64,000 nucleotides of DNA, taken from positions 1,517 to 65,516 of the forward strand of contig CAZFWX010000001.1 in the NCBI GenBank assembly GCA_964522695.1. Direction: 5' to 3'. Positions within the stretch are counted from its first letter, which is position 1. The number at the start of each line of letters is the position of its first letter. The notes beneath the pieces were generated by a model, which ran no database searches, was not told the origin of the DNA, and was given only the letters and a program-made list of their open reading frames with translations. Shown here piece after piece: positions 33,086-64,000 of the stretch. The position numbers and the translations under genes are program-made. Source of the stretch: an uncultured Desulfobacterales bacterium (lineage in GTDB: Bacteria; Desulfobacterota; Desulfobaccia; Desulfobaccales; 0-14-0-80-60-11).

Positions 33086-33087
33086 AC

Positions 33088-35010: not shown

Positions 35011-35040
35011 CCTAAATTTTTCGCATCTCCCCCGGGAATT

Positions 35041-35910: not shown

Positions 35911-36875
35911 AGCGCCTGGCCTTCCTTAACCCCGGCATCCTTTTTTTGCCGGTAATGCTGCTCACGTCTCTGGCGGTGCCCAACAACTACTACTTCACCC
36001 TCCTGAACATCATCGGCATCCACACCATTTTGACCCTGGGGCTGAACCTGCTCATGGGCTACGCCGGCCAGATTTCCCTGGGCCACGCCGCCTTTTTCGG
36101 TCTGGGGGCCTACACCTCCGGCATCCTCACCACGGCAGGCCTGGTGAACCCCTGGCTGGCCCTGGTCCTGGGGCTGGCGGTGTCGGGGATTGCGGCTTTT
36201 CTCATCGGCGTCCCGGTGCTCAAACTCCGGGGCTATTACCTGGCCATGGCCACCCTGGGCTTCGGGGTCATCGTTTACATCGTCTTCACCCAGGCCCAGC
36301 GTTTCACCGGCGGACCCTCAGGCCTCACCGGCATCCCTTCCTTAAGCCTCCTGGGCTTTGCCCTGGACACCCCCGGACGGCTCTACTTTCTCATCTGGGC
36401 CGCGGTGGGGCTGCTGCTGCTGCTCAGCGCCAACCTGGTGGACTCCCGGGTGGGGCGGGCGTTGCGGGCCCTGCACGACAGCGAGGTCGCGGCCCAGTCC
36501 CTGGCCGTGGACACCGCCCGCCTGAAGCTGCAAATCTTTATTCTGAGCGCCCTGTACGCTTCTTTGGCCGGCAGTCTCTACGCCCACGCCCTGAATTTTA
36601 TCGCCCCGTCCTCCTTTGACATCATGTTTTCCATCAAGCTGGTCACCATGGTAGTGGTGGGCGGCATGGCCAGCATCTGGGGCTCGCTCCTGGGCGCGGC
36701 GACGCTCACAGTCCTGCCGGAATTCCTGGCCTTCTTTCACGAATTCGAGATTGTCATTTACGGCGCCATTCTCATGGTGGTGATGATCTTTCTGCCCCGG
36801 GGTCTGCTGCGGGGCTTCTTAGAATTGTGGGATCGCCGCCGCCGGTCGCCCCAGGGAGGGCCACTCCCTGACTGA
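35907..36875 (+). CDS. livM: Branched-chain amino-acid ABC permease LivM
   Basis: GTG start overlapping the livH stop. GYAGQISLGHAAFFGLGAY motif. Confidence 0.85.
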   Translation: MKRLAFLNPGILFLPVMLLTSLAVPNNYYFTLLNIIGIHTILTLGLNLLMGYAGQISLGHAAFFGLGAYTSGILTTAGLVNPWLALVLGLAVSGIAAFLIGVPVLKLRGYYLAMATLGFGVIVYIVFTQAQRFTGGPSGLTGIPSLSLLGFALDTPGRLYFLIWAAVGLLLLLSANLVDSRVGRALRALHDSEVAAQSLAVDTARLKLQIFILSALYASLAGSLYAHALNFIAPSSFDIMFSIKLVTMVVVGGMASIWGSLLGAATLTVLPEFLAFFHEFEIVIYGAILMVVMIFLPRGLLRGFLELWDRRRRSPQGGPLPD

Positions 36876-36891
36876 AACCGCGCTCCTCCGG

Positions 36892-37644
36892 TTGGATGAC
36901 GTGTCCATCTCTTTCGGCGGCCTGGCCGCGCTGAACCAGGTGAGCTTTGCCGTGGAGTCCGGCACCGTCAAGGCCGTCATCGGGCCCAACGGCGCGGGCA
37001 AGACCACCCTGTTTCACCTTATCACCGGCTTCCTCACCCCCGAGGCCGGACGCATCGTATTCCAGGACGAAGAAATCCAGGGCCAGCCGGCCCACGCCAT
37101 CGCCGCCCGGGGCATTGCCCGCACCTTTCAGCTGGTCCAGCTCTTTGATCATCTCACCGTCCTGGAAAACATCATGGTGGGCCGCCATAGGCTCACCCGC
37201 TCGGGCCTGGTGGCGGGCGCCCTGCGATTGCCCCGCTCCCGCCGGGAGGAGGCGGCCATCCGCCGGGACGCCTGGGAATCTTTGGAATTCGTGGGCCTCA
37301 CCGGCCGGGCGCAGCAGTTGGCCGGGTCTTTGCCTTTGGGGCTCAAGCGCCTCCTGGAAATTGCCCGGGCCCTGGCCGCGGCGCCGAAGCTTTTGCTCCT
37401 GGATGAGCCCGCCTCGGGCCTGGACCCGGTGGAGACGGAGCGTCTGGGCGAGCGCATCATGGACCTGCGCCGCCGGGGGCTCACCGTGCTGTTGGTGGAG
37501 CACGACATGAGCCTCACCATGGAAGTGGCCGACGACATCGCGGTGCTCAGCTACGGCCGCCTCCTGGCCCAGGGCCCGCCCCGGGCCATCCAGCGGCATC
37601 CGGAGGTCATCGCCGCGTACCTGGGCACGGACTGGCAGGGCTGA
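36892..37644 (+). CDS. livG: ABC ATP-binding protein LivG
   Basis: Walker A GPNGAGKTT, signature LPLGLKRLLEIARAL, Walker B LLLLDEP. The true start may lie a few codons upstream. Confidence 0.85.
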   Translation: MDDVSISFGGLAALNQVSFAVESGTVKAVIGPNGAGKTTLFHLITGFLTPEAGRIVFQDEEIQGQPAHAIAARGIARTFQLVQLFDHLTVLENIMVGRHRLTRSGLVAGALRLPRSRREEAAIRRDAWESLEFVGLTGRAQQLAGSLPLGLKRLLEIARALAAAPKLLLLDEPASGLDPVETERLGERIMDLRRRGLTVLLVEHDMSLTMEVADDIAVLSYGRLLAQGPPRAIQRHPEVIAAYLGTDWQG

Positions 37645-37840
37645 ATTGTTTTGCAGGGCCGGAAAGCCCAGCGCACCCTGCCTTTCGGGGTGCTCTCTGG
37701 AAGTGCCTAAACTTAAGGTGCTGCATGCTTTCCAGTCTGCGAAGCCCAAATAGCAGGCGGAAAGCCGGCGATTACGAAAATTTCCTTGTTTTCAGATCAA
37801 AATATCAGCTCAGACGCCACTTCTGAGGGGAAAAGACGCC

Positions 37841-38254
37841 ATGGTCAGCAGCAAGTTTTCGAGACAAGTCGCCATCTTTGTTGTTTTATTTTCATTATTT
37901 GGCATGCTGCACCTTCCCCAGGCCCAGGCCGGCTGCGCGGTGACGGTGAAAAATGAGACCGGCTACGATCTCGTGTTGCTCAAGTACGTGAAAGAGGATG
38001 GCGTCGGCAAGAAGGTGATGGGGCAGACCGCCTTGAAAAAGGGTGGTGCTCATACCTTCAACCTGGGCACTGCGGGCACCTACCGGGCCTACGCCTCCCT
38101 CATGATGGACGGCCAGCTCAAATATGCCAAGGGCAACGCCTACACGGTGAAGGACGGCACCCGGGCCGAACTGAAGTTGCTCAGGGTGGTGGCCAATGAG
38201 AAAGGCAGCTCCATCAGCTTTATCAATCAGGACGAGTTTGACCGCCTCAAATGA
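37841..38254 (+). CDS. Small secreted hypothetical protein inserted between livG and livF
   Basis: Signal peptide ..LHLPQAQA|GC. No family recognised. Flanked by repeat-bearing spacers. Confidence 0.6.
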   Translation: MVSSKFSRQVAIFVVLFSLFGMLHLPQAQAGCAVTVKNETGYDLVLLKYVKEDGVGKKVMGQTALKKGGAHTFNLGTAGTYRAYASLMMDGQLKYAKGNAYTVKDGTRAELKLLRVVANEKGSSISFINQDEFDRLK

Positions 38255-38389
38255 CGGCGTTCCCCCGGCAGGAATGGAAAAGGTTGCCCTTCGGGGTCGC
38301 CCCCTTTGATTAAAATAATTCTATTCCGGCGAAGCCGCGTGGTATGATGGCCTCCCAGGGTTCGCCGGACGGCCGGGCGCATTAACTTT

Positions 38390-39124
38390 ATGCTCAGAAT
38401 CCGCAATCTTTTCGCCTACTACGGATCGGTCACGGCCTTGAGCGGCGTCACCTGCCGGGTCCGGGAGGGCGAGATCGTGGCCCTGATCGGCGCCAACGGC
38501 GCGGGCAAGACCACGCTCCTGAACGCCGTCTGCGGCATGGTGCGCTGGCAGGGCGAGGCCGCCTTCCGGGGGCGCTCCCTGGTCGGACTGGCCCCGGAGG
38601 AGATCGTGGGGCTGGGCATTTCCCAGGTGGCCGAGGGCCGGCAGCTCTTCGCGCCCATGACCGTGGCCGAAAACCTTGAGTTGGGAGCCTACCGCCGCCG
38701 CCGGGAAGCCAAGACCGCGCTGGTCGAAGATCAGGAGCGGGCCTTCACCTTGTTTCCGGTGCTGAAGGAACGCCTGGCCCAAAAAGCCGGCACCCTGAGC
38801 GGGGGCGAACAGCAGATGCTGGCCATCGCCCGGGCCCTCATGGCCCGTCCAAAACTCTTGTTGCTGGATGAGCCTTCTTTAGGTCTTGCACCACTGGTCG
38901 TGGAAACCATTTTGGCCACCCTGGGGGATCTTAGGGCTGCGGGGATGACCATTTTGCTGGTGGAGCAAAACGCCCGGGCCGCGCTCAAGGTGGCGGACCG
39001 GGCCTATGTCCTGGAAACCGGGCGCATTATGCTGTCCGGGGCGGCCGCGGATCTGTTGGCGGACCGCCAGGTGACCCGGGCCTATCTGGGACGGGACTAC
39101 AAAGAATTCACCGAAGGGAGGTGA
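38390..39124 (+). CDS. livF: ABC ATP-binding protein LivF
   Basis: Walker A GANGAGKTT, signature LSGGEQQMLAIARAL, Walker B LLLLDEP. Confidence 0.9.
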   Translation: MLRIRNLFAYYGSVTALSGVTCRVREGEIVALIGANGAGKTTLLNAVCGMVRWQGEAAFRGRSLVGLAPEEIVGLGISQVAEGRQLFAPMTVAENLELGAYRRRREAKTALVEDQERAFTLFPVLKERLAQKAGTLSGGEQQMLAIARALMARPKLLLLDEPSLGLAPLVVETILATLGDLRAAGMTILLVEQNARAALKVADRAYVLETGRIMLSGAAADLLADRQVTRAYLGRDYKEFTEGR

Positions 39125-40377
39125 GGTTCGTGCGGCAGCCGGAATTCGAGGCCATGGAACCGGAGGAGTTGGAACTGCTGCAACTGGAGCGCCTGCAAAG
39201 CAGCCTCACCCGGGCCTACCGCCAGGTGAAATTTTACCGCCGCCAGTTCGAGCAGACGGGTTTGCGACCTCAGGATATCCAGTCCCTGGGCGACCTGGCC
39301 CGCCTGCCTTTCACCAGCCGGGAGGACCTCTCGGAGAACTACCCCTACGGCCTGTTCGCCGTGCCCCTTAGGGACATCGTGCGCATCCTCTCCTCGCCCG
39401 GCACCACCGATAAGCCCCTGGTGGTGGGTTACACCTCCCAGGACGTCAAACTCTGGCTGGAACTGCTGGCCCGCCTGTACACCGCCGCGGGGGTCACCCG
39501 GGAGGACATTGTCCAGCTCATCCTGCCGCCGGGGCTCGCCAACTGGCGACGGGACTTCCAGGCCGGGGCCGAATACCTGGGGGCTTCGGTCATTCCGGCG
39601 GCTACTTTAAATTTTGCCAAGGAACTCATGGTCTTGAGGGATTACAAGACCTCGGTCCTGGTCACCACCCCGCCCTTAGCCCGGCACCTGCTCACGGTGA
39701 TGGAGCAGATGGAGCTCATGCCCGCGGACTTAAGCCTCAAGAAGGTCCTGCTGGTGGCCGCGCCTTTAACGCCCATGGTGCGCCGGGAAATTGAAGAAGG
39801 CCTCCAGGTGCGGGCCGCCAGCGCCTACGGCATCACCGAAGTCATGGGGCCGGGCCTGGCCTACGGCTGCGAGGTTGATGAGGGCCTGCATTTCTCGGCC
39901 GACCATTTCTTCCCGGAAATTGTCGATCCGGTGACGGGCGCACCTTTGCCTGCGGGAGCCGAAGGCGAGCTGGTGATCACCACCCTGTCCACTCTGGCCG
40001 TGCCCCTGGTACGCTTTAAAAGCGGCGACCGGGCCCGGCTGGAGACGGAGCCCTGTCTCTGCGGCCGCACCCTGGTGCGCCTGGCCGAAGTGCGGGGGCG
40101 GGTGGACGCCATCTTCTCCGTAGGCGGCATCAAGGTCCATCCCCGGCAGATCAGCGCCCTGTTGGCCGAGGCCCTGGGGGGGGAGGCCCCCGAGTTCCAC
40201 TACCAGGTGGTCACCGAGGCGGGTCTGGAGGTCCTGGACCTGGAACTCACCGTGGCTGAGTCTTTCTTCTCGGATGAAATCAAAGCCCTGGAAGGCCTGT
40301 GCCGCAAGGTCAGGCGGCATTTCCAGGACCACCTGGGCTTAAACGCCCGCATTACGTTAAGGGAAATGACCCCCTAG
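39121..40377 (+). CDS. Divergent PaaK-like CoA ligase paralog (degenerate AMP-binding loop)
   Basis: N-terminus is collinear with paaK (FYRRQFEQTGLRPQDIQSLGDLARLPFTSREDLSENYPYGLFA), but the loop reads SSPGTTDKP instead of SSGTTGKP. Confidence 0.8.
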   Translation: MRFVRQPEFEAMEPEELELLQLERLQSSLTRAYRQVKFYRRQFEQTGLRPQDIQSLGDLARLPFTSREDLSENYPYGLFAVPLRDIVRILSSPGTTDKPLVVGYTSQDVKLWLELLARLYTAAGVTREDIVQLILPPGLANWRRDFQAGAEYLGASVIPAATLNFAKELMVLRDYKTSVLVTTPPLARHLLTVMEQMELMPADLSLKKVLLVAAPLTPMVRREIEEGLQVRAASAYGITEVMGPGLAYGCEVDEGLHFSADHFFPEIVDPVTGAPLPAGAEGELVITTLSTLAVPLVRFKSGDRARLETEPCLCGRTLVRLAEVRGRVDAIFSVGGIKVHPRQISALLAEALGGEAPEFHYQVVTEAGLEVLDLELTVAESFFSDEIKALEGLCRKVRRHFQDHLGLNARITLREMTP

Positions 40378-40556
40378 AGGTAATGCTGGTCAACAGCGAA
40401 TCCTCTCTGGGGGCGAGGTCCCTTCGCCCAGCTTGCAGGGGAAGGACAAAGCGGGGGGCCCTACGGCAACCAGGCATTATCAAGGCCGAAAGGAAATGCC
40501 TGGTGTTTAATGGGACTGTTTAGCAAAACCGAATAATATTTTCTGAGACCACTATT

Positions 40557-40579
40557 CCCCCTCCCCTCGGGGGAGGGGG
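40557..40579. repeat. 10-bp perfect GC hairpin (CCCCCTCCCC-tcg-GGGGAGGGGG)
   Basis: Read directly from the sequence. Related to family B. Confidence 0.5.
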
Positions 40580-40634
40580 TCAGGGGGATGAGGCTTTTTC
40601 CCGGCACCCAATAATCCTGCCGCAGAATTTGCCG

Positions 40635-40670
40635 CCCCCACCCCAGCCCTCCCCATCCAGGGGGAGGGAG
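40635..40670 (+). repeat. Family-B GC hairpin repeat copy (CCCCCACCCCAGCCCTCCCC-atccag-GGGGAGGGAG)
   Basis: Near-identical to 21020-21057. Confidence 0.6.
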
Positions 40671-40778
40671 AATCTGACCGATTAGCCCAGGGAAATGGAA
40701 AAGCCTTGCACGAAAAGACATGCTGATGGCAGTTTCCTGATCTCATTGGGCCGGCCACTTTTATTAAAGGAGGTACGT

Positions 40779-41921
40779 ATGAAACGTACTCATTGGTTCA
40801 TGGTTTTGGCATTGGTCCTGGGCGCCTGCCTCGTCGCCGGCCTGGGCTGCGGGGAAAAGAAAAGCACCAAGGTCGGCTCGGTGCTGCGCCTGTCCATCGG
40901 CGCCGAACACGGCATCCCCTCCAAACGGGGCGTGCTCATGGCCGTGGAGGAAGTGAACCAGGCCGGCGGCATCAACGGCATGAAGGTGGAGGCCGTGGTG
41001 GAGGACGAGAAGGACTCCCCCACCACCGGCGTCAACGCGGTGCAGAAGCTCATCAACGTGGACAAGGTCATCGCCATGGTGGGGCCCATGACGTCGGGCG
41101 CGGCCTCGGCGGCGGCCAAAACTGCGGAAGAAGCCAAAGTGGTGATGGTGACCCCCACCGCCACCACTCCCAAATTGAGCGGCATCGGCCAGTATGTCTA
41201 CCGGGGCTGCTCCCGCATCGACACCCAGTCCCAGGTGATGACCCAGTACATCGCCGAGAAGCTCAAGCCCAAAACCGTGGCCATTCTGTTCAGCAATGAG
41301 CCCTATGGCAAGGGCTGCGCCGAGGCCTTCGGCAAGGACTTCGCCAAGGTGGGCATCCAGGTGGTGGCCACCGAGTCCTTCAACCGGGGCTCCCGGGACT
41401 TTAAAAGCGAGCTGACTAAGATCAAGGAAAAGAATCCGGATATTCTCTTCATCCCCGGCTACACCCCGGAAACCGCGCCCGCCGCGGCCCAGGCCCGGCA
41501 GTTGGGCATGAACCAGAAGATCATCGGCGTCTACGGCGACATGGACCCGGTCTACGCCCAGCTGGCCGGCGCGGCCGCAGAAGGCCACCTCATCAACGGG
41601 GAGTACGACGAAGATTACGACACCCCCAAGAACAAGAAATTCCGGGAAGCCTACTATGCCAAGGCCAAAGAGGCCAAAGAGCCGGTGAACATCATGTTCG
41701 CGGCCCTGTGCTATGATTCGGCTTCCCTGATTCTGGAGGGCATCAAGAAAAACGGCCCCACCAGCGAGGGCGTCAAGAAGTTTCTGGACACGGTGAAGGA
41801 CTTCGACGGCGTGACTGGCAAGCTCTCCTTTGACGACAAGCACGACGTGGTGCGCAGCGGCAGCAAAGGCGGCGTCTACCTCTTCGAAATCAAAAACGGC
41901 AAGTACGTCAAGGTGCAATAG
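40779..41921 (+). CDS. Second LivK-type periplasmic substrate-binding lipoprotein
   Basis: Lipobox LVAGLG|C. RBS AAGGAGG. Peripla_BP_6-like motifs (AMVGPMTSG). Confidence 0.85.
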   Translation: MKRTHWFMVLALVLGACLVAGLGCGEKKSTKVGSVLRLSIGAEHGIPSKRGVLMAVEEVNQAGGINGMKVEAVVEDEKDSPTTGVNAVQKLINVDKVIAMVGPMTSGAASAAAKTAEEAKVVMVTPTATTPKLSGIGQYVYRGCSRIDTQSQVMTQYIAEKLKPKTVAILFSNEPYGKGCAEAFGKDFAKVGIQVVATESFNRGSRDFKSELTKIKEKNPDILFIPGYTPETAPAAAQARQLGMNQKIIGVYGDMDPVYAQLAGAAAEGHLINGEYDEDYDTPKNKKFREAYYAKAKEAKEPVNIMFAALCYDSASLILEGIKKNGPTSEGVKKFLDTVKDFDGVTGKLSFDDKHDVVRSGSKGGVYLFEIKNGKYVKVQ

Positions 41922-54964: not shown

Positions 54965-55408
54965 TCAGGTGAACAGGCACAGCTTGGCGTCTTTGGCGTA
55001 CCTCAGGAACTCCTCGGCATTCCAGATGGCGATGCCTTCTATGAAATCCTCGTCCTTGAACTCCATCATGTCAATGGTCATGCGGCAGGCGATGAGCTCC
55101 ACGCCCTCGATCTGGGCCATCTCCATAAGGTCCGGCAAAGCCGGAATCTGGGCCTTTTCGGCCTTTTTCTTCATCATGGCCGTGGCGATGGTGGACATGC
55201 CGGGCACCGCGCCCATGACCCCGGGGGGGATGAACTTGGCCTTCTCCACACCGCCTTTGAGCACCAGGTTGACACCCATGAAGGTATAGAAGACCTTGGC
55301 TTCCATGCCCAGCCGGGCGGCGTTGATGCCCAGAATTAAAGACGGGTAGGCCCCGTCCAGGGTGTCCCGGGAACAGATGAAACAGGCCCTTTCTTTCTTC
55401 TCGCTCAT
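54965..55408 (-). CDS. DsrE/DsrF-like sulfur-relay family protein
   Basis: ACFICSRDTLDGAYPSLILGINAARLGMEAKVFYTFMGV is typical of the DsrE2/'peroxiredoxin-like' DsrE family. Confidence 0.75.
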   Translation of the reverse strand: MSEKKERACFICSRDTLDGAYPSLILGINAARLGMEAKVFYTFMGVNLVLKGGVEKAKFIPPGVMGAVPGMSTIATAMMKKKAEKAQIPALPDLMEMAQIEGVELIACRMTIDMMEFKDEDFIEGIAIWNAEEFLRYAKDAKLCLFT

Positions 55409-55469
55409 TTTTATGACTCCTTATTGCTTCTGCGGTTTTTTGTATTGATCGCCCTGAACTGCGGGGCGT

Positions 55470-55766
55470 CTACCCCCCGATGAATTTCCCCAGCACGTCA
55501 ACCATTTTGTTCATGCGGCTGAAGAGTTCTTCGGGGTCGGGTTTTTCGCTGATTTCGCTGTAGCACTTGAGGAGGTAGGCCTTGAGCACCAGGGCGCCCG
55601 CCGATTTGAGAGCAGACTGCACCGCCCGGACCTGGATGAGGATGTCTTCGCATTCCTTGCCGTCAACGATCATGCCCTGCAGGCCGCGGACCTGCCCCTC
55701 GATCTTTCGCAAGCGGGACACCACATTCCGCTGCATCTGCTCCTTGGTCTGCTCCATCAGTACCAT
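55470..55766 (-). CDS. csoR: CsoR/RcnR/CstR-family (DUF156) transcriptional repressor
   Basis: Start placed at MVLMEQTKE. RLRKIEGQVRGLQGMI signature. Two Cys residues (..GKECEDIL.. and ..LLKCYSE..) and no obvious W-X-Y-Z His. Confidence 0.8.
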   Translation of the reverse strand: MVLMEQTKEQMQRNVVSRLRKIEGQVRGLQGMIVDGKECEDILIQVRAVQSALKSAGALVLKAYLLKCYSEISEKPDPEELFSRMNKMVDVLGKFIGG

Positions 55767-55889
55767 GGTTCCCCCTGTTCTTTTTGAGTCAGGCGCCGGC
55801 CGGCTTGCGCCCGTCGTTGACCACCGCACACTGAACCCAATGTCCACGGCATTGGAGTACAGCGAAGAGGACAACCGGGTCGGTTGTCC

Positions 55890-56944
55890 CTAGATGTTGG
55901 TCCCGGTGGAGGTGACTTTGCTGTTGAAACCGTGGACGTACCCACGTTGATGATGAACCGGTCGGTGATCTCATAGCCCGCCCCCACGCTGAGATGATGC
56001 TCCGTGACGGCCGGGAAGCCGATGTTCCGGAAGGTTTCAAAGTAGTATTGGGGAATGTATTGGCCCTGCAGGTATACCGGGGTGAGGCCGTTGTCCCCCC
56101 GGTGCTCCTTGACGGGATTATTGCCATAATTATACCCCGCCCGCAAGGACAACTTGGGAATGGGTTTATACTGCACGCCGAAGTTGACCATAATCTGATC
56201 TTGCCAGTCAAAGTCGCCGTAACCGGCCGCGCCCGACCAGTTGAGCCATTTGATGTTGGCCTCCAGGAGCAGCTGCTCGGGGAAGGGCTCATAAGCCACG
56301 CCAAAGCCCAAGGTGTGCGGGGATTCCAGCACCAGATCGTCCCGGCGGCCGTTTTGATCGAAGTCCAGGACCTTATTGAGGGCGAAGCCCAGGGACAGCC
56401 AGGGCAGCGGCTGATAGGCCACCGTGGGCGCGAACTTCATGATCATGAGATCGGTGAAGGCGCCCGCGGTCAGAGGGGGGCCCATGGGGAAGAAGGCCCG
56501 GTCCAGGGGGGTGTCCAGGTAATTGACCCCCTGCCCCGAGATGCCGTAAGCGCCGAAGCCGAAGCGCCATCTAGGCAGTTCCGCGAAGTTCCAGGATATA
56601 CCCATAGTGGGTATTTGTTAAATGCGATGCTCACTGGTGGATTGGCAGAACTGGGGGCCGTTCGTGAACGAGGCCCGCACCGTGGGCATGAACAGCGTGC
56701 CGGCGAAGTCCACCTGGGAACTGGGGCAGAAGGATCCGAAGCACATGCTGGCGGGATTGGCAAAGACCGCGCTGATGGCGTCCTGGGGCGCGGCGATGCC
56801 GACTCCGCCCATGGCCCGGGAAATGGGGCCGACGCCGATGAGATTATCGCCGTTGGTAGCCTGTGAGAAGGAAGGCACCATCACCAGGGCCAGGATGGCC
56901 AGGAGCCAGGGGAGCCGGCGAGTCGCCATAACCGCATACCTCAT
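55890..56944 (-). pseudogene. FadL/TodX-family outer-membrane transport porin interrupted by an in-frame TAA and a probable 1-nt frameshift
   Basis: The N-terminal ORF (signal peptide, NGDNLIGVGPISRAMGGVGIA..) and the C-terminal ORF are in the same frame, separated by TAA at 56618-56620. Near 55938 the barrel-like sequence continues in another frame (..INVGYVHGFNSKVTSTGTNI*), while the open frame runs into csoR. Confidence 0.6.
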
Positions 56945-57149
56945 TAATTATTAACTCTACCCCAGTTTGGTATTTTTCCCCCTTTCTGTCAAGAAATTTT
57001 TTCCAAGAATTTGCTCCGGCAATTTCCCCTTCCCGTCATCCTACCCTACCACCTTTGCCCCTGCGCCTTGCAGTTTGGCTGGCGGCGTCCAGTCGGCCAC
57101 ACATTCCGGGTAATTTTTTCTTCCCGGCGTCCTTAACCTTTGGCTTTCC

Positions 57150-57166
57150 TGCGGCAAAATGCCGCA
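57150..57166. promoter_or_regulatory. Perfect inverted repeat TGCGGCA-aaa-TGCCGCA; candidate enhancer (UAS) for a sigma-54 activator
   Basis: Lies about 180 bp upstream of the -24/-12 element. Confidence 0.35.
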
Positions 57167-57204
57167 AAGGGGAGTTTTTCTCCCTTGTTGATAATAACTA
57201 ATCA

Positions 57205-57217
57205 AATCAATGAGTTG
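57205..57217 (+). promoter_or_regulatory. IHF-consensus match AATCAATGAGTTG (WATCAANNNNTTR) between the candidate UAS and the sigma-54 promoter
   Basis: Exact match to the consensus as I recall it. Sits in an AT-rich tract. Confidence 0.35.
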
Positions 57218-57330
57218 ACAATTATTTTCGATCTTTGCCGGTAATTACGCCACCTTTCCCCTCCCCTCCCAACCATCAGATTTATGGCTAATTAACTATT
57301 TTTCCTAATATTTTCGTCTCAATGACTGCC

Positions 57331-57346
57331 AGGCACGCCCTTTGCT
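57331..57346 (+). promoter_or_regulatory. Sigma-54 (-24/-12) promoter aGGCACGcccTTTGCT
   Basis: GG at 57332-57333 and GC at 57344-57345, giving the exact 12-nt register. Matches TGGCACG-N4-TTGCW at every position except the first T. The ATG at 57370 follows, preceded by RBS AAAGGAGAG. Confidence 0.6.
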
Positions 57347-57369
57347 CATAAAGAGGCCCAAAGGAGAGA

Positions 57370-57804
57370 ATGGCGAAAGTCGGCGCAAACAGGATGGGGC
57401 GTGCAACGAAAGGTGGTGAGGCCATGGCGACATGCAGCACGGTTCTGATTGCCGAACCCGGGGATCATCTGACCGGCGGCCTGCGGCTGTGGGTGCGCGA
57501 CAACGGGCATCAGCTTCTCACCGTGGACAAATTCACGGATCTCCTCATCACCTTGCAGCGGGAAAAGGTCAGCGTTCTGGTCATGGACGTGCGCCTCTCC
57601 GAGGGACATGGGTATGAAGCCATCTCCATCATCAAGGGGTTGTGTCAGAAACTGCCCATCATCATCTGCGCCGCGGAAAACAACCCGGAACAGGAGGCCC
57701 TCATCCGCCAGAAAGGCATCTTCTATTACCACGTCACGTCGTTCGGCCTGGAAGAACTGATGATGGCCATTTCCAACGCCCTGGGGCGGGCCGCGCACGT
57801 CTGA
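57370..57804 (+). CDS. Stand-alone CheY-like receiver-domain protein
   Basis: VLIAEPGD..VLVMDVRLSEGHGYEAISIIK..PIIICAAE receiver pattern. Confidence 0.7.
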   Translation: MAKVGANRMGRATKGGEAMATCSTVLIAEPGDHLTGGLRLWVRDNGHQLLTVDKFTDLLITLQREKVSVLVMDVRLSEGHGYEAISIIKGLCQKLPIIICAAENNPEQEALIRQKGIFYYHVTSFGLEELMMAISNALGRAAHV

Positions 57805-57815
57805 AGGGAGACCCC

Positions 57816-58685
57816 ATGCAACTGGAACCCAAACTGGCAAAAGGGGAATTTGTCATTCTGGCGGAGATGGAGCCTCCCAAAGGGGCAGACGTCTCCGAAA
57901 TGGTGGGCCATGCCCTGGCCGTCAAAGGCCGGGTGGACGGCTTTGTGGTGCCGGAGATGAGCAGCGCGGTGATGCGCTTGAGCTCCCTGGGCGGGGCCAT
58001 GCTCCTGGCCAACCGGGGCTTGACCTCAGTGATGCAGGTCTGCTGCCGGGACCGCAACCGCCTGGCCCTGCAGGCGGACCTCCTGGCCGCCAACGCCCTG
58101 GGCATAGAGAACGTCATGGCCGTGACCGGCGATGACATCACCTTTGGCGACCACCACAAGGCCCGGCCGGTGAATGACCTGGACCTGATGGAGCTGCTGG
58201 GGGCCCTCAAGACCCTCATGTCCGGCCGGGATCTGGCCGGCATCGAGCTCAAGGGCGCGCCCCGGTTCTTCGTGGGGGCCCTGGCCAACACCGGAGCCAA
58301 GGCCCTGGACCTGGAGCTGGCCGACCTGGACCAGAAGGTGGCCGCAGGGGTGCGCTTCTTTCTGACGCCCCCGGTCTTTGACCTGGCCGTCCTGGAACGC
58401 TTCCAGAAGCGCCTGGCCGGCGCCGGCGCCTATCTCATCCCCACCGTGCTCCTGCTCAAAAGCGTGGGCATGGCCCGGTACCTGGACCGCCATATCGAGC
58501 AGGTCAGCGTTCCCGCCGCGGTCATCGACCGGCTCCAGAAGGCCCCGGAGCGGGTGCGGGAGTGTGTGGCCATCGCCGGGGAACTGGTGGCCGGCGTCCG
58601 GGATATGGGGCTAAGCGGCGTCAACCTGTCCACCATCGGCTGGGAAGACAAACTCCCGGCCGTGCTCGCGGCCGCGGGTCTGTAA
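57816..58685 (+). CDS. metF: Methylenetetrahydrofolate reductase (MetF, acetogen/sulfate-reducer type)
   Basis: FVILAEMEPPKG..CRDRNRLALQADLLAANALGIENVMAVTGDD..FFLTPPVFD motifs. RBS GAAGGGAG. Confidence 0.85.
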   Translation: MQLEPKLAKGEFVILAEMEPPKGADVSEMVGHALAVKGRVDGFVVPEMSSAVMRLSSLGGAMLLANRGLTSVMQVCCRDRNRLALQADLLAANALGIENVMAVTGDDITFGDHHKARPVNDLDLMELLGALKTLMSGRDLAGIELKGAPRFFVGALANTGAKALDLELADLDQKVAAGVRFFLTPPVFDLAVLERFQKRLAGAGAYLIPTVLLLKSVGMARYLDRHIEQVSVPAAVIDRLQKAPERVRECVAIAGELVAGVRDMGLSGVNLSTIGWEDKLPAVLAAAGL

Positions 58686-58710
58686 TCACTGTCGGCAAGA
58701 GGGCGGTATC

Positions 58711-61700
58711 ATGGCAGAATCACAGATGCAATCCAATCCTTCCACCCCTCCCACCGGTGCGGTCATGGTGGTGGGCGCGGGTATCGCCGGGGTGCAGGCG
58801 GCCCTGGACCTGGCCAAATCCGGCATTTTCGTCCACCTGGTGGAGAGCAAACCGGCCATCGGCGGGGTCATGGCCCAACTGGACAAGACCTTCCCCACCA
58901 ACGACTGCTCCATGTGCATCCTCTCGCCCAAATTGGTGGAATGCGGCCGCCATCTGAATATCCAGATTCATACCTTAACCGAAGTGCAGGACATCAGCGG
59001 AGAGCCGGGGCATTTCACCGTCAGCCTGACCAAGCACCCCCGCTATATCGACCCGGCCAAATGCACCGGCTGCGGCGACTGCACCAAGGTCTGCCCGGTG
59101 CTCATTCCGGATGAGTTCAACCAGGGACTGGCGGACTGGAAGGCCACCTACCGCCTTTATCCCCAGGCCATCCCGGCCGCCTTCGCCATCAAGAAGCTGG
59201 ACCGGGCGCCCTGCACTCTCACCTGCCCTGCGGAAATCAACGTCCAGGGCTACGTCCAGCTCATCAAGATGGGCAAATATGAAGAGGCGGTCAGGCTCAT
59301 CATGGAGCGCCTGCCGCTGCCCGGCGTTCTGGGCCGGGTCTGCCCGCACCCCTGTGAGGACCAGTGCCGGCGCAAGGACTTGGATGAACCCGTTTCCATC
59401 TGTTCCCTCAAGCGCTTCGCCGCAGACCAGGTGGATCTCGCGGCCATCAATCCGCCGCCCGTGGAGGCCCGGCCGGAGAGAATCGCCATCGTCGGCTCCG
59501 GCCCCGCGGGGCTGGCCTGCGCCTACCATTTGGCCCTTAGGGGCTACCGGCCCACCATCTTCGAGGCCCTGGACAAGCCCGGCGGCATGCTGCGGGTGGG
59601 CATCCCGGACTACCGCCTGCCCAAAGACATATTAGATAAGGAAATTGACAATATTCTGCGCCTGGGGGTGGAGCTCAAAACCAATACCGCCCTGGGCCGG
59701 GATTTCACCCTGGACGGCCTCTTTGACCAGGGCTACCAGTCAGTTTTCCTGGGTCTGGGCTGCCACCTGGGCAAACCCCTGGGCATCCCCGGCGAGGACG
59801 CGGACGGCGTGGTCCAGGGCGTGGATTTCCTGCGGCGTCAGAGTCTGGGCCAGCCCCAGCCCGTGGGGAAGCGCCTGGCCGTGGTGGGCGGCGGCAACGT
59901 GGCCATCGACGTGGCCTGCACCGCCCGGCGCCTGGGGTCGGACGTCACCATCGTCTACCGGCGCTCCCGGGAGGAGATGCCCGCGTTCCACCACGAAGTG
60001 GAGCAGGCCCTGTGCGAAGGCGTCAAGATCGTCTATCTGGCCGCGCCCCTGAAAGTCGTCGCCGGTCCTGACGGCAAGGTCACGGGGCTCTTGTGCCAGC
60101 AGATGGAGCTGGGCGAGCCCGACGCTTCGGGCCGGCGCAAACCGGTGCCCATCCCCGGCCAAGAGTTCGAACTGGCCGTGGACATGGTGGTGCCGGCCAT
60201 CGGCCAGGAAGCGGCGCTAACGGCCTTCCAAGACTGGGGCGTCAACGTCAGCAAGTGGGGCACCATCGAGGTGGACGAGGTCAGCTACCAGACCTCCCGG
60301 CCCGGGGTCTTCGCCGCGGGCGACGTGCACACCGGCCCCTGGATCGCCATCGAAGCGGTGGGGGGCGGCATCGAGGCCGCAGAATCCATTGACCGCTACC
60401 TCAAGGGCCTGGACCTCACCGCGGGCCGGGTCCTGGGCAAGGAGGCCCACCAGCGCTGGGCCGACATCCCCAAGGACGAATACGGCCAGTTGCGGGAGGA
60501 AATGCCCACTCTGCCGCCCGAGACCTCCTGCGCCTGCTTTGACGAAATTGCCCTCGGCTTCAGCGAAGCCCAAGCTCAAAAAGAGGCGGCCCGCTGCCTC
60601 AATTGCGGCATCTGCTCCGAATGCATGCAGTGCGTTATCGCCTGCCAGGCCAATGCCGTGGACCATACGCAACAGCCGGAGACGCTGAACGTGGAGGTGG
60701 GTTCCGTGATTCTGGCGCCGGGATTCAAGACCTTTGATCCGGCGCGCATGGCCACCTACGGCTACCTGACCCACCCCAACGTGGTCACCGCCCTGGAATT
60801 TGAGCGCATCTTATCGGCCAGCGGCCCCTTCGAAGGGCACCTGGTGCGGCCCAGCGACCACAAGGAACCCAAAAAGATCGCCTGGCTGCAGTGCGTGGGC
60901 TCAAGGGACGTCAAGACCCACTCGTATTGCTCGTCGGTATGCTGCATGTACGCCATCAAAGAGGCGGTCATCGCCAAGGAGCACGCCGACTACCCCCTGG
61001 ACTGCGCCATCTTTTTCATGGACCTGCGCACTTTCGGCAAGGACTTCGAGAAATACGCCAACCGGGCCCAGGATGAAGCCGGGGTGCGCTTCATCCGCTC
61101 CCGCATCCACAGCATCGACCCGGCCCCGGACGGAGGTTTGGCCCTGCAATACCTGGATGAAACCGGGGCCATTAAGACGGAAGACTTCGACCTGGTGGTC
61201 CTGTCCGTGGGCATGGAGATCACCGAGGACGTGAAAAGGCTGGGCGCCAAACTGGGGGTGGAGCTGAACAGCCACGCCTTCGCGTCCACCCATCCCTTTG
61301 CGCCGGTGGCCACCTCCCGGCCCGGGGTGTACGTCTGCGGCGCCATGGCCGGCCCCAAGGACATCCCAGAATCCGTCACCCAGGCCTCCGCTGCGGCCGC
61401 AGCCAGCAGTGCGCTCCTGGGCCAGTCCCGCTGGACCCTGACCCGCACCCGGCAGATCCCCGAACCCAAGGATATAACCGGCGAGCCCGCCCGGGTGGGC
61501 GTGTTCGTCTGCGACTGCGGCATTAACATCGCCAGTGTGGTGGATATTCCCAGGCTGTCCGAATACGCCCGGGGTCTGCCCCATGTAGTCTTTGTGCAGG
61601 AGAACCTCTTCACCTGCTCCCAGGACACCCAGGTGCAGATGCTCAAGGCCATCGAAGACCACAATATCAACCGGGTGGTGGTGGCCGCATGCACGCCCCT

Positions 61701-63150
61701 GACGCACGAGGCCCTGTTCCGGGAAACCCTGCTGGACGCGGGGCTGAACAAGTATCTCTTCGAGATGGCCAACATCCGCAACCAGGACTCCTGGGTGCAT
61801 ATGCATGAGAAGGAGGAGGCCACGGAGAAGGCCCAGGACCTGGTGCGCATGGCCGTGGCCCGGGCCACCCTGCTCAAGCCCCTGGTGGAGACGCCTCTGA
61901 CCATCAATCAGCGGGCCCTGGTGCTGGGCGGCGGGGTGGCGGGCATGAACGCCGCTTTGAACCTGGCGGATCAGGGTTTTGAAACCATCCTGGTGGAAAA
62001 GGAGCGGGAACTGGGGGGTCTCGCCCGCCGGGTGCACCATACTCTCGAAGGCATGGACGTGCAGGCCTACCTGGACGGCCTCATCGACCAAGTGAAAAGC
62101 CATGAGAAAATCCAGGTCCTCACCCAGGCCCTGGTGGTGGGCTACAGCGGCTACAAGGGCAACTTCGTGACGGAAGTCCTGGTGGGCCCCGGCATGTATG
62201 AACGCAAAATCGAGCACGGGGCCACGGTCATCGCCACCGGCGCGCAGGAGTACCGGCCCAAGGAATTTGCTTACGGCAGCCATCCCGGCGTCATGACCCA
62301 GCTCGAACTGGGCCAGATGGTGCACGAACAGAAGGATAAAGTGGCGGGCTGGCAGCGGGCCTTCTTCATCCAGTGCGTGGGCTCCAGAAACGAAGAGAAC
62401 CCCAACTGCAGCCGCATCTGCTGCCAGGGCGCGGTGAAGCATGCCCTGGAACTCAAAAAGCTCAACCCGGTCATGGAGGTGGTGGTGCTCTACCGGGATA
62501 TGCGCACCTACGGGCTCCAGGAGGACTACTATCTGGAGGCCCGCAACCAGGGGGTGCTCTTCTCCCGCTTCGATCTGGAGCGGCTCCCCCAGGTGAGCGA
62601 AGCCGGCGGGAAGCTCTCGGTGCAATTCCTGGACCACGTCCTGCAGATGCCGGTGAGCCTGCCCGCGGACGCGGTCATCCTGAGCGCGGCCACGGTGGCC
62701 GGCGATAACGAGGAGCTGGCCTCGCTGCTCAAGGTCCCCCGGGGCTCGGAAGGCTTTTTTATCGAAGCCCACGCGAAACTCAGGCCCGTGGATTTCTCCA
62801 GCGAGGGCATCTTCCTGGCGGGCAGCGCGCACAGCCCCAAGCTGGTCACGGAGAGCATCGCCCAGGCCCTGGCTGCGGCCTCCCGGGCCGGGGCGTTTTT
62901 AGCGGACACCAGCCAGACCATCAGCGGCGTCACTGCCTGCGTCACGCCGGACCGCTGCGCCGCCTGCCTCATCTGTGTGCGGGTCTGCCCCTTCAAGGTG
63001 CCGCAGATCAACCAGGATAATGTTTCGGAGATAAACCGGGCCCTGTGCCAGGGGTGCGGCATCTGCGCCTCGGAGTGCCCGGCCAAGACGATCCAGGTGT
63101 CCCATTACGAGGACGACCAGATTACCGCCAAGATCAAGGCGCTGTTTTAA
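58711..63150 (+). CDS. hdrA: Giant HdrA-like flavoprotein (1479 aa): two HdrA modules with an inserted GltD/NfnB-like NAD(P)H-binding module (HdrL-type)
   Basis: FAD motif VVGAGIAGVQAALDLA. Several CxxCxxCxxxCP clusters. GltD-like block PCTLTCPAEINV..GRVCPHPCEDQC..IAIVGSGPAGLACAYHL..VVGGGNVAIDVA. Two HdrA cores (CVGSRD..YCSSVCCMYAIK and CVGSRNEE..CSRICCQGAVK). Confidence 0.9.
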   Translation: MAESQMQSNPSTPPTGAVMVVGAGIAGVQAALDLAKSGIFVHLVESKPAIGGVMAQLDKTFPTNDCSMCILSPKLVECGRHLNIQIHTLTEVQDISGEPGHFTVSLTKHPRYIDPAKCTGCGDCTKVCPVLIPDEFNQGLADWKATYRLYPQAIPAAFAIKKLDRAPCTLTCPAEINVQGYVQLIKMGKYEEAVRLIMERLPLPGVLGRVCPHPCEDQCRRKDLDEPVSICSLKRFAADQVDLAAINPPPVEARPERIAIVGSGPAGLACAYHLALRGYRPTIFEALDKPGGMLRVGIPDYRLPKDILDKEIDNILRLGVELKTNTALGRDFTLDGLFDQGYQSVFLGLGCHLGKPLGIPGEDADGVVQGVDFLRRQSLGQPQPVGKRLAVVGGGNVAIDVACTARRLGSDVTIVYRRSREEMPAFHHEVEQALCEGVKIVYLAAPLKVVAGPDGKVTGLLCQQMELGEPDASGRRKPVPIPGQEFELAVDMVVPAIGQEAALTAFQDWGVNVSKWGTIEVDEVSYQTSRPGVFAAGDVHTGPWIAIEAVGGGIEAAESIDRYLKGLDLTAGRVLGKEAHQRWADIPKDEYGQLREEMPTLPPETSCACFDEIALGFSEAQAQKEAARCLNCGICSECMQCVIACQANAVDHTQQPETLNVEVGSVILAPGFKTFDPARMATYGYLTHPNVVTALEFERILSASGPFEGHLVRPSDHKEPKKIAWLQCVGSRDVKTHSYCSSVCCMYAIKEAVIAKEHADYPLDCAIFFMDLRTFGKDFEKYANRAQDEAGVRFIRSRIHSIDPAPDGGLALQYLDETGAIKTEDFDLVVLSVGMEITEDVKRLGAKLGVELNSHAFASTHPFAPVATSRPGVYVCGAMAGPKDIPESVTQASAAAAASSALLGQSRWTLTRTRQIPEPKDITGEPARVGVFVCDCGINIASVVDIPRLSEYARGLPHVVFVQENLFTCSQDTQVQMLKAIEDHNINRVVVAACTPLTHEALFRETLLDAGLNKYLFEMANIRNQDSWVHMHEKEEATEKAQDLVRMAVARATLLKPLVETPLTINQRALVLGGGVAGMNAALNLADQGFETILVEKERELGGLARRVHHTLEGMDVQAYLDGLIDQVKSHEKIQVLTQALVVGYSGYKGNFVTEVLVGPGMYERKIEHGATVIATGAQEYRPKEFAYGSHPGVMTQLELGQMVHEQKDKVAGWQRAFFIQCVGSRNEENPNCSRICCQGAVKHALELKKLNPVMEVVVLYRDMRTYGLQEDYYLEARNQGVLFSRFDLERLPQVSEAGGKLSVQFLDHVLQMPVSLPADAVILSAATVAGDNEELASLLKVPRGSEGFFIEAHAKLRPVDFSSEGIFLAGSAHSPKLVTESIAQALAAASRAGAFLADTSQTISGVTACVTPDRCAACLICVRVCPFKVPQINQDNVSEINRALCQGCGICASECPAKTIQVSHYEDDQITAKIKALF

Positions 63151-63160
63151 GGAGTGGCCC

Positions 63161-63613
63161 ATGGACGCGTTCCGACCGAAAATCCTGGCCTTTTGCTGCA
63201 TGTACTGAGCGTACTCGGCCGCGGACCTGGCAGGTTCGATGAGGCTGCAGTACCCCCCGGACATCCGCATCATTCAGGTGCCGTGCACCGGCAAGGTGGA
63301 CATCATCCACCTGCTCACGGCCTTTGAAGAGGGGGCGGACGGGGTTTTCGTGGCCGGTTGCCAGGAGGGCGATTGCCACTTCCTGGAAGGCAACCTGCAT
63401 GCCAAGAAACGGGTCCAACGGGTCAAGGAGATCCTGGAGAAGGTGGGCCTGGGCGCGGGCCGGGTGGAGATGTTTAACCTGTCCGCAGGCATGGGCCCCC
63501 GCTTTGCAGAAATCGCCCGGGAGATGGACGCGCGTATCAGGGAGATGGGCCCCAGTCCCATCCGGAAGGCCAAGCCCTCCCTCCCCCAGGCCGCCACGGA
63601 GGTGCGGGTATGA
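63161..63613 (+). CDS. mvhD: MvhD-like (methyl-viologen-reducing hydrogenase delta subunit family) protein with in-frame UGA at 63206-63208; probable selenoprotein
   Basis: ATG at 63161, with RBS AAGGAG 7 nt upstream. MDAFRPKILAFCCMY-UGA-AYSAADLAGSMRLQYPPDIRIIQVPCTGKVD is in frame with the track ORF 63239-63613. The UGA sits where the family has the second Cys of the F-x-C-x-W-C-S-Y-x-G-A-D motif. Confidence 0.7.
63222..63238 (+). other. Candidate SECIS-like hairpin 14 nt after the mvhD UGA (CGGACC-uggca-GGUUCG)
   Basis: 6-bp stem (one G-U pair) folded by hand. Confidence 0.3.
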
Positions 63614-64000
63614 TCAGGGCAGTGGGAAAACCGTTGGAAGAAGTGGTGGAAATGGTCCGGGAGCACCCCCGGGTGCTGGTGGCGGGCTGCGACGGCTGCG
63701 TCACCGTGTGCGAGGCGGGCGGCTTGAAGGAGGTCAAGGTGCTGGCCAGCGCCTTGCGCCTGTATTTCAACCAGGCCGAAGCTCCCAAGCAGATCGACGA
63801 AACCAGTCTCACCCGCCAGTGCGACAAAGAATACCTGGCCACCATCAGCGACAAGATTGACGGCTATGACGCCGTATTGTCCCTGGCCTGCGGCTGCGGC
63901 GTCCAGTTCATGGCGGATATGTACACCACCAAGCCCGTCTTTCCGGGGGTAGACACCACCTTTCTGGGCGTCACCGAGGAGCGGGGTCTGTACACCGAGC
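63610..64000 (+). CDS. metV: MetV (methylene-THF reductase C-terminal/zinc-finger domain protein), 3'-truncated by the window edge
   Basis: ATGA overlap with mvhD. VLVAGCDGCVTVCEAGG..LSLACGCGV Cys pattern. Confidence 0.75.
   Translation, partial: MIRAVGKPLEEVVEMVREHPRVLVAGCDGCVTVCEAGGLKEVKVLASALRLYFNQAEAPKQIDETSLTRQCDKEYLATISDKIDGYDAVLSLACGCGVQFMADMYTTKPVFPGVDTTFLGVTEERGLYTE

Follow-up and report, generated by a model that had tools for sequence, protein, structure and literature searches.

A predicted HdrBC-less, Moorella-type methylene-THF reductase operon in a Desulfobaccia-type bacterium

Genes for a methylene-THF reductase (MTHFR)-family protein, a very large flavoprotein and MvhD lie together at the 3′ end of a 64,000-nucleotide stretch of DNA (the window) from a Desulfobaccia-type bacterium. 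What kind of enzyme do they encode, and to which electron carriers would it be coupled? The original prediction listed five genes here (a receiver (REC), an MTHFR-family gene, a 1479-aa HdrA/GltD open reading frame, mvhD and the start of metV), and our analysis finds all five where it placed them, on the + strand. The features of the region are:

57332..57345, + strand: sigma-54 type (−24/−12) promoter-like motif GGCACGCCCTTTGC, ~25 nt 5′ of the REC start codon
57370..57804, + strand: REC1, an atypical stand-alone receiver-domain protein of 144 aa (PF00072)
57816..58685, + strand: MetF′, a divergent MTHFR-family paralogue of 289 aa (PF02219)
58711–63150, + strand: HdrL, an open reading frame of 1479 aa with matches to HdrA and GltD/NfnB
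63161..63613, + strand: MvhD, 150 aa, with selenocysteine (Sec) at codon 16 (PF02662)
63610..64000, + strand: MetV, residues 1–130 of 222, truncated at the end of the window; ATGA overlap with mvhD

The packing is as tight as had been proposed, with gaps of 11, 25 and 10 nt in addition to the ATGA overlap between mvhD and metV, and a stand-alone receiver is indeed the first gene (57370–57804; 42 bits against PF00072, cut-off 30.2). Whereas an exact-sequence look-up of the 1479-aa protein gave no match and that of MetF′ returned short contigs only, the 124-aa post-UGA part of MvhD, used as query, retrieved a contig (L088) that matches the final 1808 nt of the window at 99.95% identity and extends the operon. 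On this contig, a complete MetV (222 aa) is followed by a canonical MetF (311 aa), a REC protein, an ACT-domain protein, two histidine kinases and a sigma-54 activator. With metF after metV, the core thus has the Moorella order hdrA-mvhD-metV-metF, and the window region is the 5′ two-thirds of a predicted operon REC-metF′-hdrL-mvhD(Sec)-metV-metF. The original view that HdrA and MvhD split MetF from MetV is therefore incorrect: canonical metF directly adjoins metV, with an ATGA overlap, both on L088 and in relatives at 77–80% identity. Consensus scans for promoters and terminators gave nothing above shuffled expectation, so that the operon ends cannot be set in this way. No Wood–Ljungdahl genes were found within the 64 kb window, and the pathway context is therefore assumed from taxonomy; nor does the window contain tRNA genes, tRNA-Sec included.

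The largest gene product has four recognizable segments, named here with their residues in HdrL:

58711..59196, + strand: residues 1–162, covering the FAD-binding beginning of the first (TrxR-like) HdrA module together with the initial half of the ferredoxin domain inserted into it
59203..60612, + strand: residues 165–634, GltD/NfnB-like insertion ([4Fe-4S] region, FAD site, NAD(P)H Rossmann fold)
60613..61425, + strand: residues 635–905, other half of the inserted ferredoxin domain, with the remainder of the first HdrA flavin domain
61486..63150, + strand: residues 926–1479, second HdrA module and stop codon (alignment to PDB 5ODC)

In the first module (HdrA-1), residues 43–162 align with HdrA 171–290 of 5ODC and residues 635–849 with HdrA 293–509, and C118, C121, C124 and C128 are invariant among homologues. 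The 470-aa GltD module splits the ferredoxin domain inserted in HdrA-1; Pfam (PF14691, PF07992 and PF00070), NF009410 (583 bits, cut-off 516) and the NfnB and GltD structures 4YLF and 5JCA (residues 164–566, E = 1e-87 to 1e-91) all match this GltD module. The proposal of a MetF/MetV–HdrA–MvhD module that incorporates a GltD/NfnB-type NAD(P)H domain is borne out. The second module (HdrA-2) comprises an N-terminal cluster domain, a TrxR-like FAD domain and a C-terminal ferredoxin domain (residues 926–1098 align with HdrA 3–175, and 1334–1479 with HdrA 502–650), but lacks the inserted ferredoxin domain. HdrL is thus, as judged from these alignments, a covalently fused pair of HdrA modules, with three flavin domains and about eight clusters in total; full-length homologues occur in many phyla. 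E698 and K750 in HdrA-1 correspond to E356/K409 (Methanothermococcus thermolithotrophicus numbering), which at the flavin are a signature of bifurcation, though an indicative one only (PMC9430772), and are invariant in 10 of 10 homologues. The signature Glu position in HdrA-2 is G1201, which varies among homologues.

A fusion of HdrA with an NfnB/GltD module is therefore present as originally described, but it is not a new acquisition and does not set this protein apart from the Moorella system, since HdrA of Moorella thermoacetica (1487 aa) also carries GltD, interrupting an N-terminal TrxR/ferredoxin module, with a second HdrA at residues 922–1487 (PMC9430772). The name HdrL goes back to Strittmatter (2009), who used it for an HdrA/glutamate-synthase fusion of Desulfobacterium autotrophicum; as in the definition given there, the present protein combines HdrA domains with a GltD-type NAD(P)H/FAD domain and has mvhD as the next gene (PMC2702500).

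With U counted as C, MvhD matches PF02662 at 171 bits. Its in-frame TGA (63206–63208) had been taken to encode Sec, a reading now backed by the aligned codon in related loci, which is TGA in 22, TGC or TGT (Cys) in 64 and Ser in 5. The sequence can form a hairpin ~20 nt past the UGA, with GGC in the apical loop, but its folding energy is no better than that of shuffled sequence (z-score −0.35), and an Rfam scan of 57000–64000 returned no RNA family and no SECIS model. The MetV fragment is 75% identical to the N terminus of a related 222-aa MetV in which PF12225 spans residues 111–204; because this domain begins only at about residue 111, the 130-aa fragment has no Pfam match of its own. A search by sequence found no solved-structure relative of MetV.

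Two MTHFR-family proteins are thus encoded in the operon. MetF′ matches PF02219 over its full length (94 bits), yet shares only 34% identity with MetF2, the canonical MetF encoded after MetV, and matches solved MTHFR structures only at E ~5e-4. Its family comprises more than 120 cluster representatives at 66–100% identity, nearly all of 276–291 aa. For both paralogues, the active site was compared with that of E. coli MTHFR, for which we take Glu28, Asp120 and Gln183 to be the reference residues. By this presumed numbering, MetF′ keeps the Glu28 equivalent, has D at the Asp120 position (E or Q in most orthologues) and Pro in place of Gln183, whereas MetF2 keeps all catalytic residues checked; the FAD-loop motif reads VVPEMSS in MetF′ versus NVTDNQT in MetF2. 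MetF′ would be an extra subunit of uncertain role, with an active site that is altered or non-catalytic. MetF′–HdrL pairs also occur without an adjacent MetV, in three loci (L021, L022 and L044). As MetF′ sits at the hdrCB position of other loci, it was considered as a replacement for HdrBC; this was rejected as a general statement because a REC–MetF′-like pair occurs alongside hdrC/hdrB-like genes in three loci of Desulfobacteraceae (L010, L016 and L080).

The operon is predicted to be under sigma-54 control. The promoter-like motif shows the canonical spacing, with GG at −24 and GC at −12, 5′ of the first gene, and GGCAC-N5-TTGC has a single match across the 64 kb window. Both GGCAC and TTGC are invariant upstream of REC in five loci, the rest of this intergenic DNA being 49% identical. 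The sigma-54 activator gene downstream of the operon on L088 is of the NtrC type, and expression is probably governed by this downstream PAS-kinase/NtrC-type system. REC1 itself retains the phospho-acceptor Asp and lacks the N-terminal acidic pair; at its Thr and Lys positions the window alone has C and T, where orthologues carry T and K. The ATG at 57370 follows an AGGAGA ribosome-binding site, and the gene is called as 144 aa in near-identical contigs. An alternative start lies at 57424.

The arrangement recurs. HdrL-MvhD-MetV, whose co-occurrence had been put forward as a check, is found in 32 of the 61 related loci with enough downstream DNA, and loci with this order (in part extended by MetF) come from Desulfobacterota, Chloroflexota, Bacillota, Acidobacteriota, Planctomycetota and other phyla; with such recurrence, the order is not due to chance. 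The absence of hdrB and hdrC from the 64 kb window, as first reported, also stands: the window and four related loci (L003, L005, L006 and L007) gave no tblastn match to 90 HdrB/HdrC neighbor proteins. Following the original suggestion to look further, neither gene was called in the 9.6 kb that L088 adds beyond the window, and HdrB/HdrC homologues were absent within 10 kb in four close relatives. By contrast, hdrC and hdrB are adjacent in 21 of the 32 HdrL-MvhD-MetV loci, including one labeled Desulfobacca acetoxidans, and the present genome could carry genes for HdrB and HdrC at another place.

Overall, the locus is best explained as an HdrBC-less Moorella-type ('type IV') methylene-THF reductase operon, the product of which is probably coupled to ferredoxin. 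NAD(P)H would be exchanged at the GltD module of HdrL, and electrons would travel along the HdrL iron–sulfur chain to the [2Fe-2S] cluster of MvhD, and from there via MetV to the MetF flavin, the likely site of methylene-THF/methyl-THF interconversion. A sulfate reducer of the Desulfobaccia type probably runs the reaction towards oxidation of methyl-THF under physiological conditions. As this is uphill towards NAD(P)+, coupling to a second carrier at the HdrA-1 flavin would be needed, and in the absence of HdrB and HdrC this carrier would most likely be ferredoxin. The overall reaction would then be methyl-THF + Fd(red) + 2 NAD(P)+ <-> methylene-THF + Fd(ox) + 2 NAD(P)H.

That the HdrL complex bifurcates electrons is suggested by homology, and bifurcation is still open even for the Moorella enzyme (PMC5861303). 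[quoted passage not shown] Ferredoxin-driven oxidation of methyl-THF has been proposed for syntrophic acetate oxidizers (PMC6295475), and isolated MetVF from S. ovata formed methyl-THF only with ferredoxin in the assay (PMC9430772). However, NADH-dependent reduction of methylene-THF was not observed with the Moorella enzyme, nor was ferredoxin an acceptor, according to the summary in PMC6295475, and the Hdr proteins of S. ovata did not co-purify with MetVF (PMC9430772). A more far-reaching form of the proposal, namely an HdrBC-free, three-flavin HdrA–GltD/MvhD(Sec) core wired to MetVF plus MetF′ that links the oxidation of methyl-THF to the reduction of NAD(P)+ through ferredoxin-dependent confurcation in acetate-oxidizing Desulfobaccia, is rather unlikely.

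A similarly low probability attaches to the strongest alternative, a simple, non-bifurcating NAD(P)H:methylene-THF oxidoreductase in which HdrL–MvhD merely serves as the NAD(P)H-oxidizing input wire to MetVF, akin to RnfC2 in the type III enzyme of Acetobacterium woodii. The NADH-dependent MetVF–RnfC2 complex is an established precedent (PMC9430772), the GltD module with its NAD(P)H site is present, and there is no HdrBC second-substrate site. Moreover, the ferredoxin site of methanogen HdrA is the inserted ferredoxin domain, which in HdrA-1 is occupied by GltD, so that no ferredoxin docking site is identifiable on HdrL in the alignment to 5ODC; this counts against the ferredoxin-coupled reading and would also suit a plain input wire. 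On the other hand, three flavin domains and about eight clusters far exceed the needs of a wire, HdrA-1 invariably carries the Glu/Lys pair that marks bifurcating HdrA flavins, and transfer from methyl-THF to NAD(P)+ is endergonic (−200 versus −320 mV) in the oxidative direction expected for an acetate-oxidizing sulfate reducer.

Less probable again is a complete Moorella-type hexamer that obtains HdrB and HdrC from another locus, its second substrate being a DsrC-like thiol/disulfide or an unknown carrier. The 21 loci with adjacent hdrC and hdrB speak for it, as do the several HdrL paralogues in such genomes (PMC2702500) and the abundance of HdrABC/HdrL in Syntrophobacter fumaroxidans under sulfate reduction, for which a link to DsrC was proposed (PMC5947623). 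But HdrB and HdrC are missing from the window, the 9.6 kb downstream and up to 10 kb around the genes in four close relatives, and this absence is conserved across the clade at 74–80% identity, which argues for a self-sufficient unit. Very unlikely, finally, is a conditional one-carbon or redox-balancing module (or one acting on another pterin-like substrate via MetF′) rather than a catabolic Wood–Ljungdahl enzyme: sigma-54 and two-component control, the ACT-domain protein in the cluster, the lack of Wood–Ljungdahl genes nearby, the departures of MetF′ from MetF at conserved active-site positions and its pairing with HdrL where no MetV adjoins would fit, but acetogen-type MetV–MetF is tightly and widely linked to HdrL–MvhD, and every catalytic residue checked is intact in MetF2.

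The operon would encode a known kind of enzyme, the heterodisulfide-reductase-linked methylene-THF reductase originally discovered in the acetogen Moorella, from which it differs by the missing HdrB and HdrC and by an additional divergent reductase-like subunit. A widespread variant that lacks HdrBC could not use a heterodisulfide-type site, so that the candidate second carriers narrow to NAD(P)H and ferredoxin; it would also be a simpler target for purification or modeling. MetF′ represents an uncharacterized family of MTHFR paralogues that travels with HdrL in Desulfobacterota. If the HdrBC-free confurcating core were real, it would show the least machinery that Hdr-type methylene-THF reductases need and identify their second electron carrier, which has long been sought, whereas a plain NAD(P)H-dependent reductase would amount to routine genome annotation.

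Among known systems, the NfnAB/NfnSL transhydrogenase (4YLF, 5JCA) shares with HdrL the GltD-like module (two [4Fe-4S] clusters, FAD and an NAD(P)H site), and its overall stoichiometry is similar to the one proposed here; in HdrL, however, the module is an internal domain of HdrA and there is no NfnA/PyrK-type small subunit. HdrA of ANME-1 archaea carries, like HdrL, an NfnB-like insertion of ~500 aa in the inserted ferredoxin domain; the accessible text of that study discusses a MetF–NADPH link and treats this HdrA alongside HdrABC systems, describing no clustering of this HdrA with MvhD-MetV-MetF (PMC9012536). Closer in host are the HdrL/MvhD pairs of the Desulfobacterota D. autotrophicum HRM2 (PMC2702500) and S. 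fumaroxidans (PMC5947623), which have the same HdrA/glutamate-synthase fusion with an NAD(P)H site and mvhD always next, often as a selenoprotein gene. HdrL1 and HdrL3 of HRM2 contain Sec, which the present HdrL does not, and the two papers treat their HdrL loci in the context of Dsr, Fdh or HdrABC and of sulfite reduction, making no link to MetVF (PMC2702500, PMC5947623).

The closest counterpart is the Hdr-type (type IV) HdrCBA–MvhD–MetVF reductase of M. thermoacetica, described by Mock et al. in 2014 (as summarized in PMC9430772 and PMC5861303). Both systems have the order hdrA-mvhD-metV-metF, a PF12225 MetV and an acetogen-type MetF. To judge from the published description, both HdrA proteins are ~1480 aa long, with GltD in the N-terminal TrxR/ferredoxin module and a second HdrA that starts at about residue 922–926 and lacks the inserted ferredoxin domain. 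Unlike the Moorella system, the operon described here has neither hdrC nor hdrB, its MvhD is a selenoprotein, its upstream part adds genes for a receiver protein and for a divergent paralogue of MTHFR, and a predicted sigma-54 promoter is combined with a downstream two-component system, in a Desulfobaccia-type host in which the enzyme probably works in the oxidative direction.

Five closely packed genes occupy the plus strand at 57370-64000, where the original prediction had placed them; the first four are separated by 11, 25 and 10 nt.

Genes at the end of the window
57370-57804, +: stand-alone receiver (REC1), 144 aa; PF00072, 42 bits
57816-58685, +: divergent MTHFR-family protein (MetF'), 289 aa; PF02219, 94 bits, entire profile covered
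58711-63150, +: HdrA/GltD fusion (HdrL), 1479-aa ORF
63161-63613, +: MvhD, 150 codons, in-frame TGA at codon 16; PF02662, 171 bits
63610 to past the window end, +: start of MetV, with the predicted ATGA overlap with mvhD

The MetV fragment has no Pfam match of its own; it shares 75% identity with the N-terminal part of a 222-aa protein from a homologous locus (L005), in which residues 111-204 match PF12225 (MetV domain). The 124-aa part of MvhD that follows the UGA has an exact match on a JGI contig (L088), which differs from window 62193-64000 by one mismatch in 1808 nt and thus represents the same population.

Genes on L088, in order
1: MetV, 222 aa
2: canonical MetF, 311 aa, PF02219, again with an ATGA overlap
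3: canonical receiver, 126 aa
4: ACT-domain protein
5: PAS histidine kinase
6: receiver-kinase
7: NtrC-type sigma-54 activator

Three relatives with HdrL proteins of 77-80% identity (L003, L005 and L006) share the order REC, MTHFR', HdrL, MvhD, MetV, MetF, REC, ACT. Together with L088, this defines the core as hdrA-mvhD-metV-metF, the order found in Moorella. The upstream gene, originally read as the MetF partner of MetV, is instead an extra paralogue with 34% identity to the true partner; the earlier observation is confirmed, and its interpretation was right in part. The noted lack of hdrB and hdrC also extends further: tblastn with 90 HdrB/HdrC proteins gave zero matches in the whole 64 kb, and neither gene is present on the L088 continuation.

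Alignment of HdrL with the methanogen HdrA structure 5ODC gives matching blocks that reveal two HdrA modules in a single chain.

Blocks of HdrL
43-162: HdrA 171-290
165 to ~634: GltD/NfnB module (NF009410, 583 bits, over cut-off; NfnB structures, 1e-87 to 1e-91)
635-849: HdrA 293-509
926-1098: HdrA 3-175
1334-1479: HdrA 502-650

In HdrA-1, the first module, the NAD(P)H/FAD unit interrupts the inserted ferredoxin domain; HdrA-2, the second, has an N-terminal cluster domain and a C-terminal ferredoxin domain, without an inserted ferredoxin domain. The inserted module ends, on its C-terminal side, with RCLNCG (window 60595-60610; residues 629-634), the motif with which the iron-sulfur region begins in GltD-type proteins; compared with free-standing GltD/NfnB, its order may thus be permuted. 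The Glu/Lys pair regarded as a signature of bifurcating HdrA flavins (PMC9430772) is invariant in HdrA-1 (E698, K750) and not conserved in HdrA-2. The gain of a GltD module by HdrA, put forward as the central novelty, was already known: HdrA of M. thermoacetica (1487 aa) is described with this architecture (PMC9430772), the name HdrL was given to the fusion in 2009 in Desulfobacterium autotrophicum, with mvhD always the next gene (PMC2702500), and an NfnB insertion in HdrA has been described for ANME-1 (PMC9012536).

Selenocysteine in MvhD, as predicted, agrees with the aligned codon, which is TGA in 22 loci, Cys in 64 and Ser in 5, in sequence terms the usual Sec/Cys signature; D. autotrophicum, too, has an MvhD that is a selenoprotein (PMC2702500). 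The hairpin after the UGA in mvhD is statistically undistinguished in this GC-rich DNA.

Full-length HdrL cluster representatives number more than 120, at 59-80% identity. At least 599 HdrL matches came from a scan in which each species was represented by one genome, and 80 loci were kept; near-full-length matches among these, covering most of residues 1-1479, carry the labels Desulfobacterota, Acidobacteriota, Chloroflexota, Bacillota, Planctomycetota and, in one MAG, Hodarchaeota. Of the 61 loci with enough downstream DNA, 32 have the order HdrL-MvhD-MetV. In 21 of these 32, hdrC/hdrB, identified by Pfam (CCG and 4Fe-4S dicluster domains), lie nearby, placed directly upstream (Moorella and a locus with the label Desulfobacca acetoxidans are examples) or fused after metF (for example in Anaerolineae). 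They are absent from four with adequate flanks, the window plus L088 being a fifth such case, and the flanks of seven are too short to judge. At other loci a different, conserved three-gene module replaces MetVF, so HdrL-MvhD appears to be a core of general use, linked to NAD(P)H and serving several partners. This module lies 0.5-5 kb after HdrL (L025, L026, L028, L029, L060, L064, L031 and others) in many HdrL-MvhD loci of Syntrophales, Smithella and Bacillota; its cysteine-rich proteins have ~330, 340 and 285 aa, the last resembling, by eye, PyrK/NfnA-type FAD/NAD proteins. Tandem HdrL genes occur in L018, L024, L082 and L044, the second copy ~1-4 kb after the first; the N-terminus of the second copy is closer to that of the window's HdrL (60-63%), and the copy appears as ORFs of ~900-1000 aa rather than one of ~1480 aa. 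This second copy may contain an in-frame TGA and be a selenoprotein, as HdrL1 and HdrL3 of D. autotrophicum are.

MetF' belongs to a large, uniform family (more than 120 representatives, nearly all 276-291 aa). Compared with E. coli MetF and the MetF proteins following MetV, it keeps the Glu28 equivalent, has Pro in place of Gln183 and carries VVPEMSS rather than NVTDNQT in the flavin loop; at the position corresponding to Asp120, the window has Asp and most orthologues have Glu or Gln. In L044 and the window clade, HdrL comes directly after a REC-MetF' pair in the gene order; a more distant REC-MetF'-like pair precedes hdrC/hdrB-like genes in Desulfobacteraceae (L010, L016, L080), and MetF'-HdrL pairs stand apart from MetVF in L021 and L022. 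MetF' is thus a recurrent HdrL companion in Desulfobacterota rather than a straight HdrBC substitute.

Upstream of REC1, GGCAC-N5-TTGC (57332-57345) occurs once in the window and is the sole conserved block among five otherwise divergent aligned upstream regions. This conservation, with an NtrC-type activator encoded downstream, indicates a predicted sigma-54 type -24/-12 promoter with REC1 as first gene, as originally proposed; the motif's counterparts on L088, downstream of metF, are that activator, the PAS kinase and the receiver-kinase. REC1 keeps the phospho-acceptor Asp, and the N-terminal acidic pair is missing in all members; at the conserved positions that are Thr and Lys in orthologues, the window copy (57424-57801) reads Cys and Thr. 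REC1 may be a phosphorylation-independent receiver. Directly upstream and divergent (54965-56944, -) lie genes for a DsrE-like protein, a CsoR/RcnR-type metal-sensing repressor and a FadL/Toluene_X-like outer-membrane protein. Because the relatives with 77-80% identity do not have these neighbours in common with the window, REC1 marks the start of the conserved unit.

Features elsewhere in the window
5328-6713, -: sigma-54 activator, an N-terminal PilZ domain replacing the receiver domain
9105-12455, -: 1116-aa B12-binding, MeaB GTPase and methylmalonyl-CoA-mutase fusion (IcmF-like fused acyl-CoA mutase)
14758-20801, -: stretch holding a histidine kinase of 1800 aa, with numerous PAS and GAF domains and a HisKA_3 domain, and the next-listed ORF
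14758-15399: adjoining 213-aa ORF, response regulator-like by N-terminal sequence
31739-41921, +: two phenylacetate-CoA-ligase-like ligases (Pfam AMP-binding, AMP-binding_C_2); between them ORFs resembling, by eye, an ACT-domain protein and an ABC transporter of the branched-chain amino-acid type

The sequences show which domains and cofactor sites are present and that linkage of the genes is conserved; the operon probably encodes a methylene-THF reductase of the Hdr type that works with NAD(P)H. NAD(P)H would enter or leave at the GltD module, and the MetF flavin would receive electrons from the HdrL clusters by way of the MvhD [2Fe-2S] cluster and MetV. Two activities are reported for the Moorella complex, oxidation of NADH with benzyl viologen and reduction of methylene-THF with reduced viologen (PMC5861303). 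An organism like Desulfobaccia is likely to use the oxidative direction, which is uphill to NAD(P)+ (-200 versus -320 mV; PMC6295475) and would require coupling. With no HdrBC, ferredoxin would be the most plausible partner, one proposed for syntrophic acetate oxidisers (PMC6295475). That the enzyme is both ferredoxin-coupled and bifurcating is a tentative and rather doubtful extension. Against an NAD(P)H/ferredoxin enzyme, GltD takes up the usual ferredoxin site, Wood-Ljungdahl genes were not found nearby, and HdrBC might be encoded elsewhere.

By its likeness to the Moorella-type enzyme and to HdrL, the system belongs with both. It differs from the former in lacking HdrBC, a defining feature, and in adding MetF', REC and sigma-54 control; this HdrBC-less variant could help to identify the missing electron partner of the Moorella-type class.
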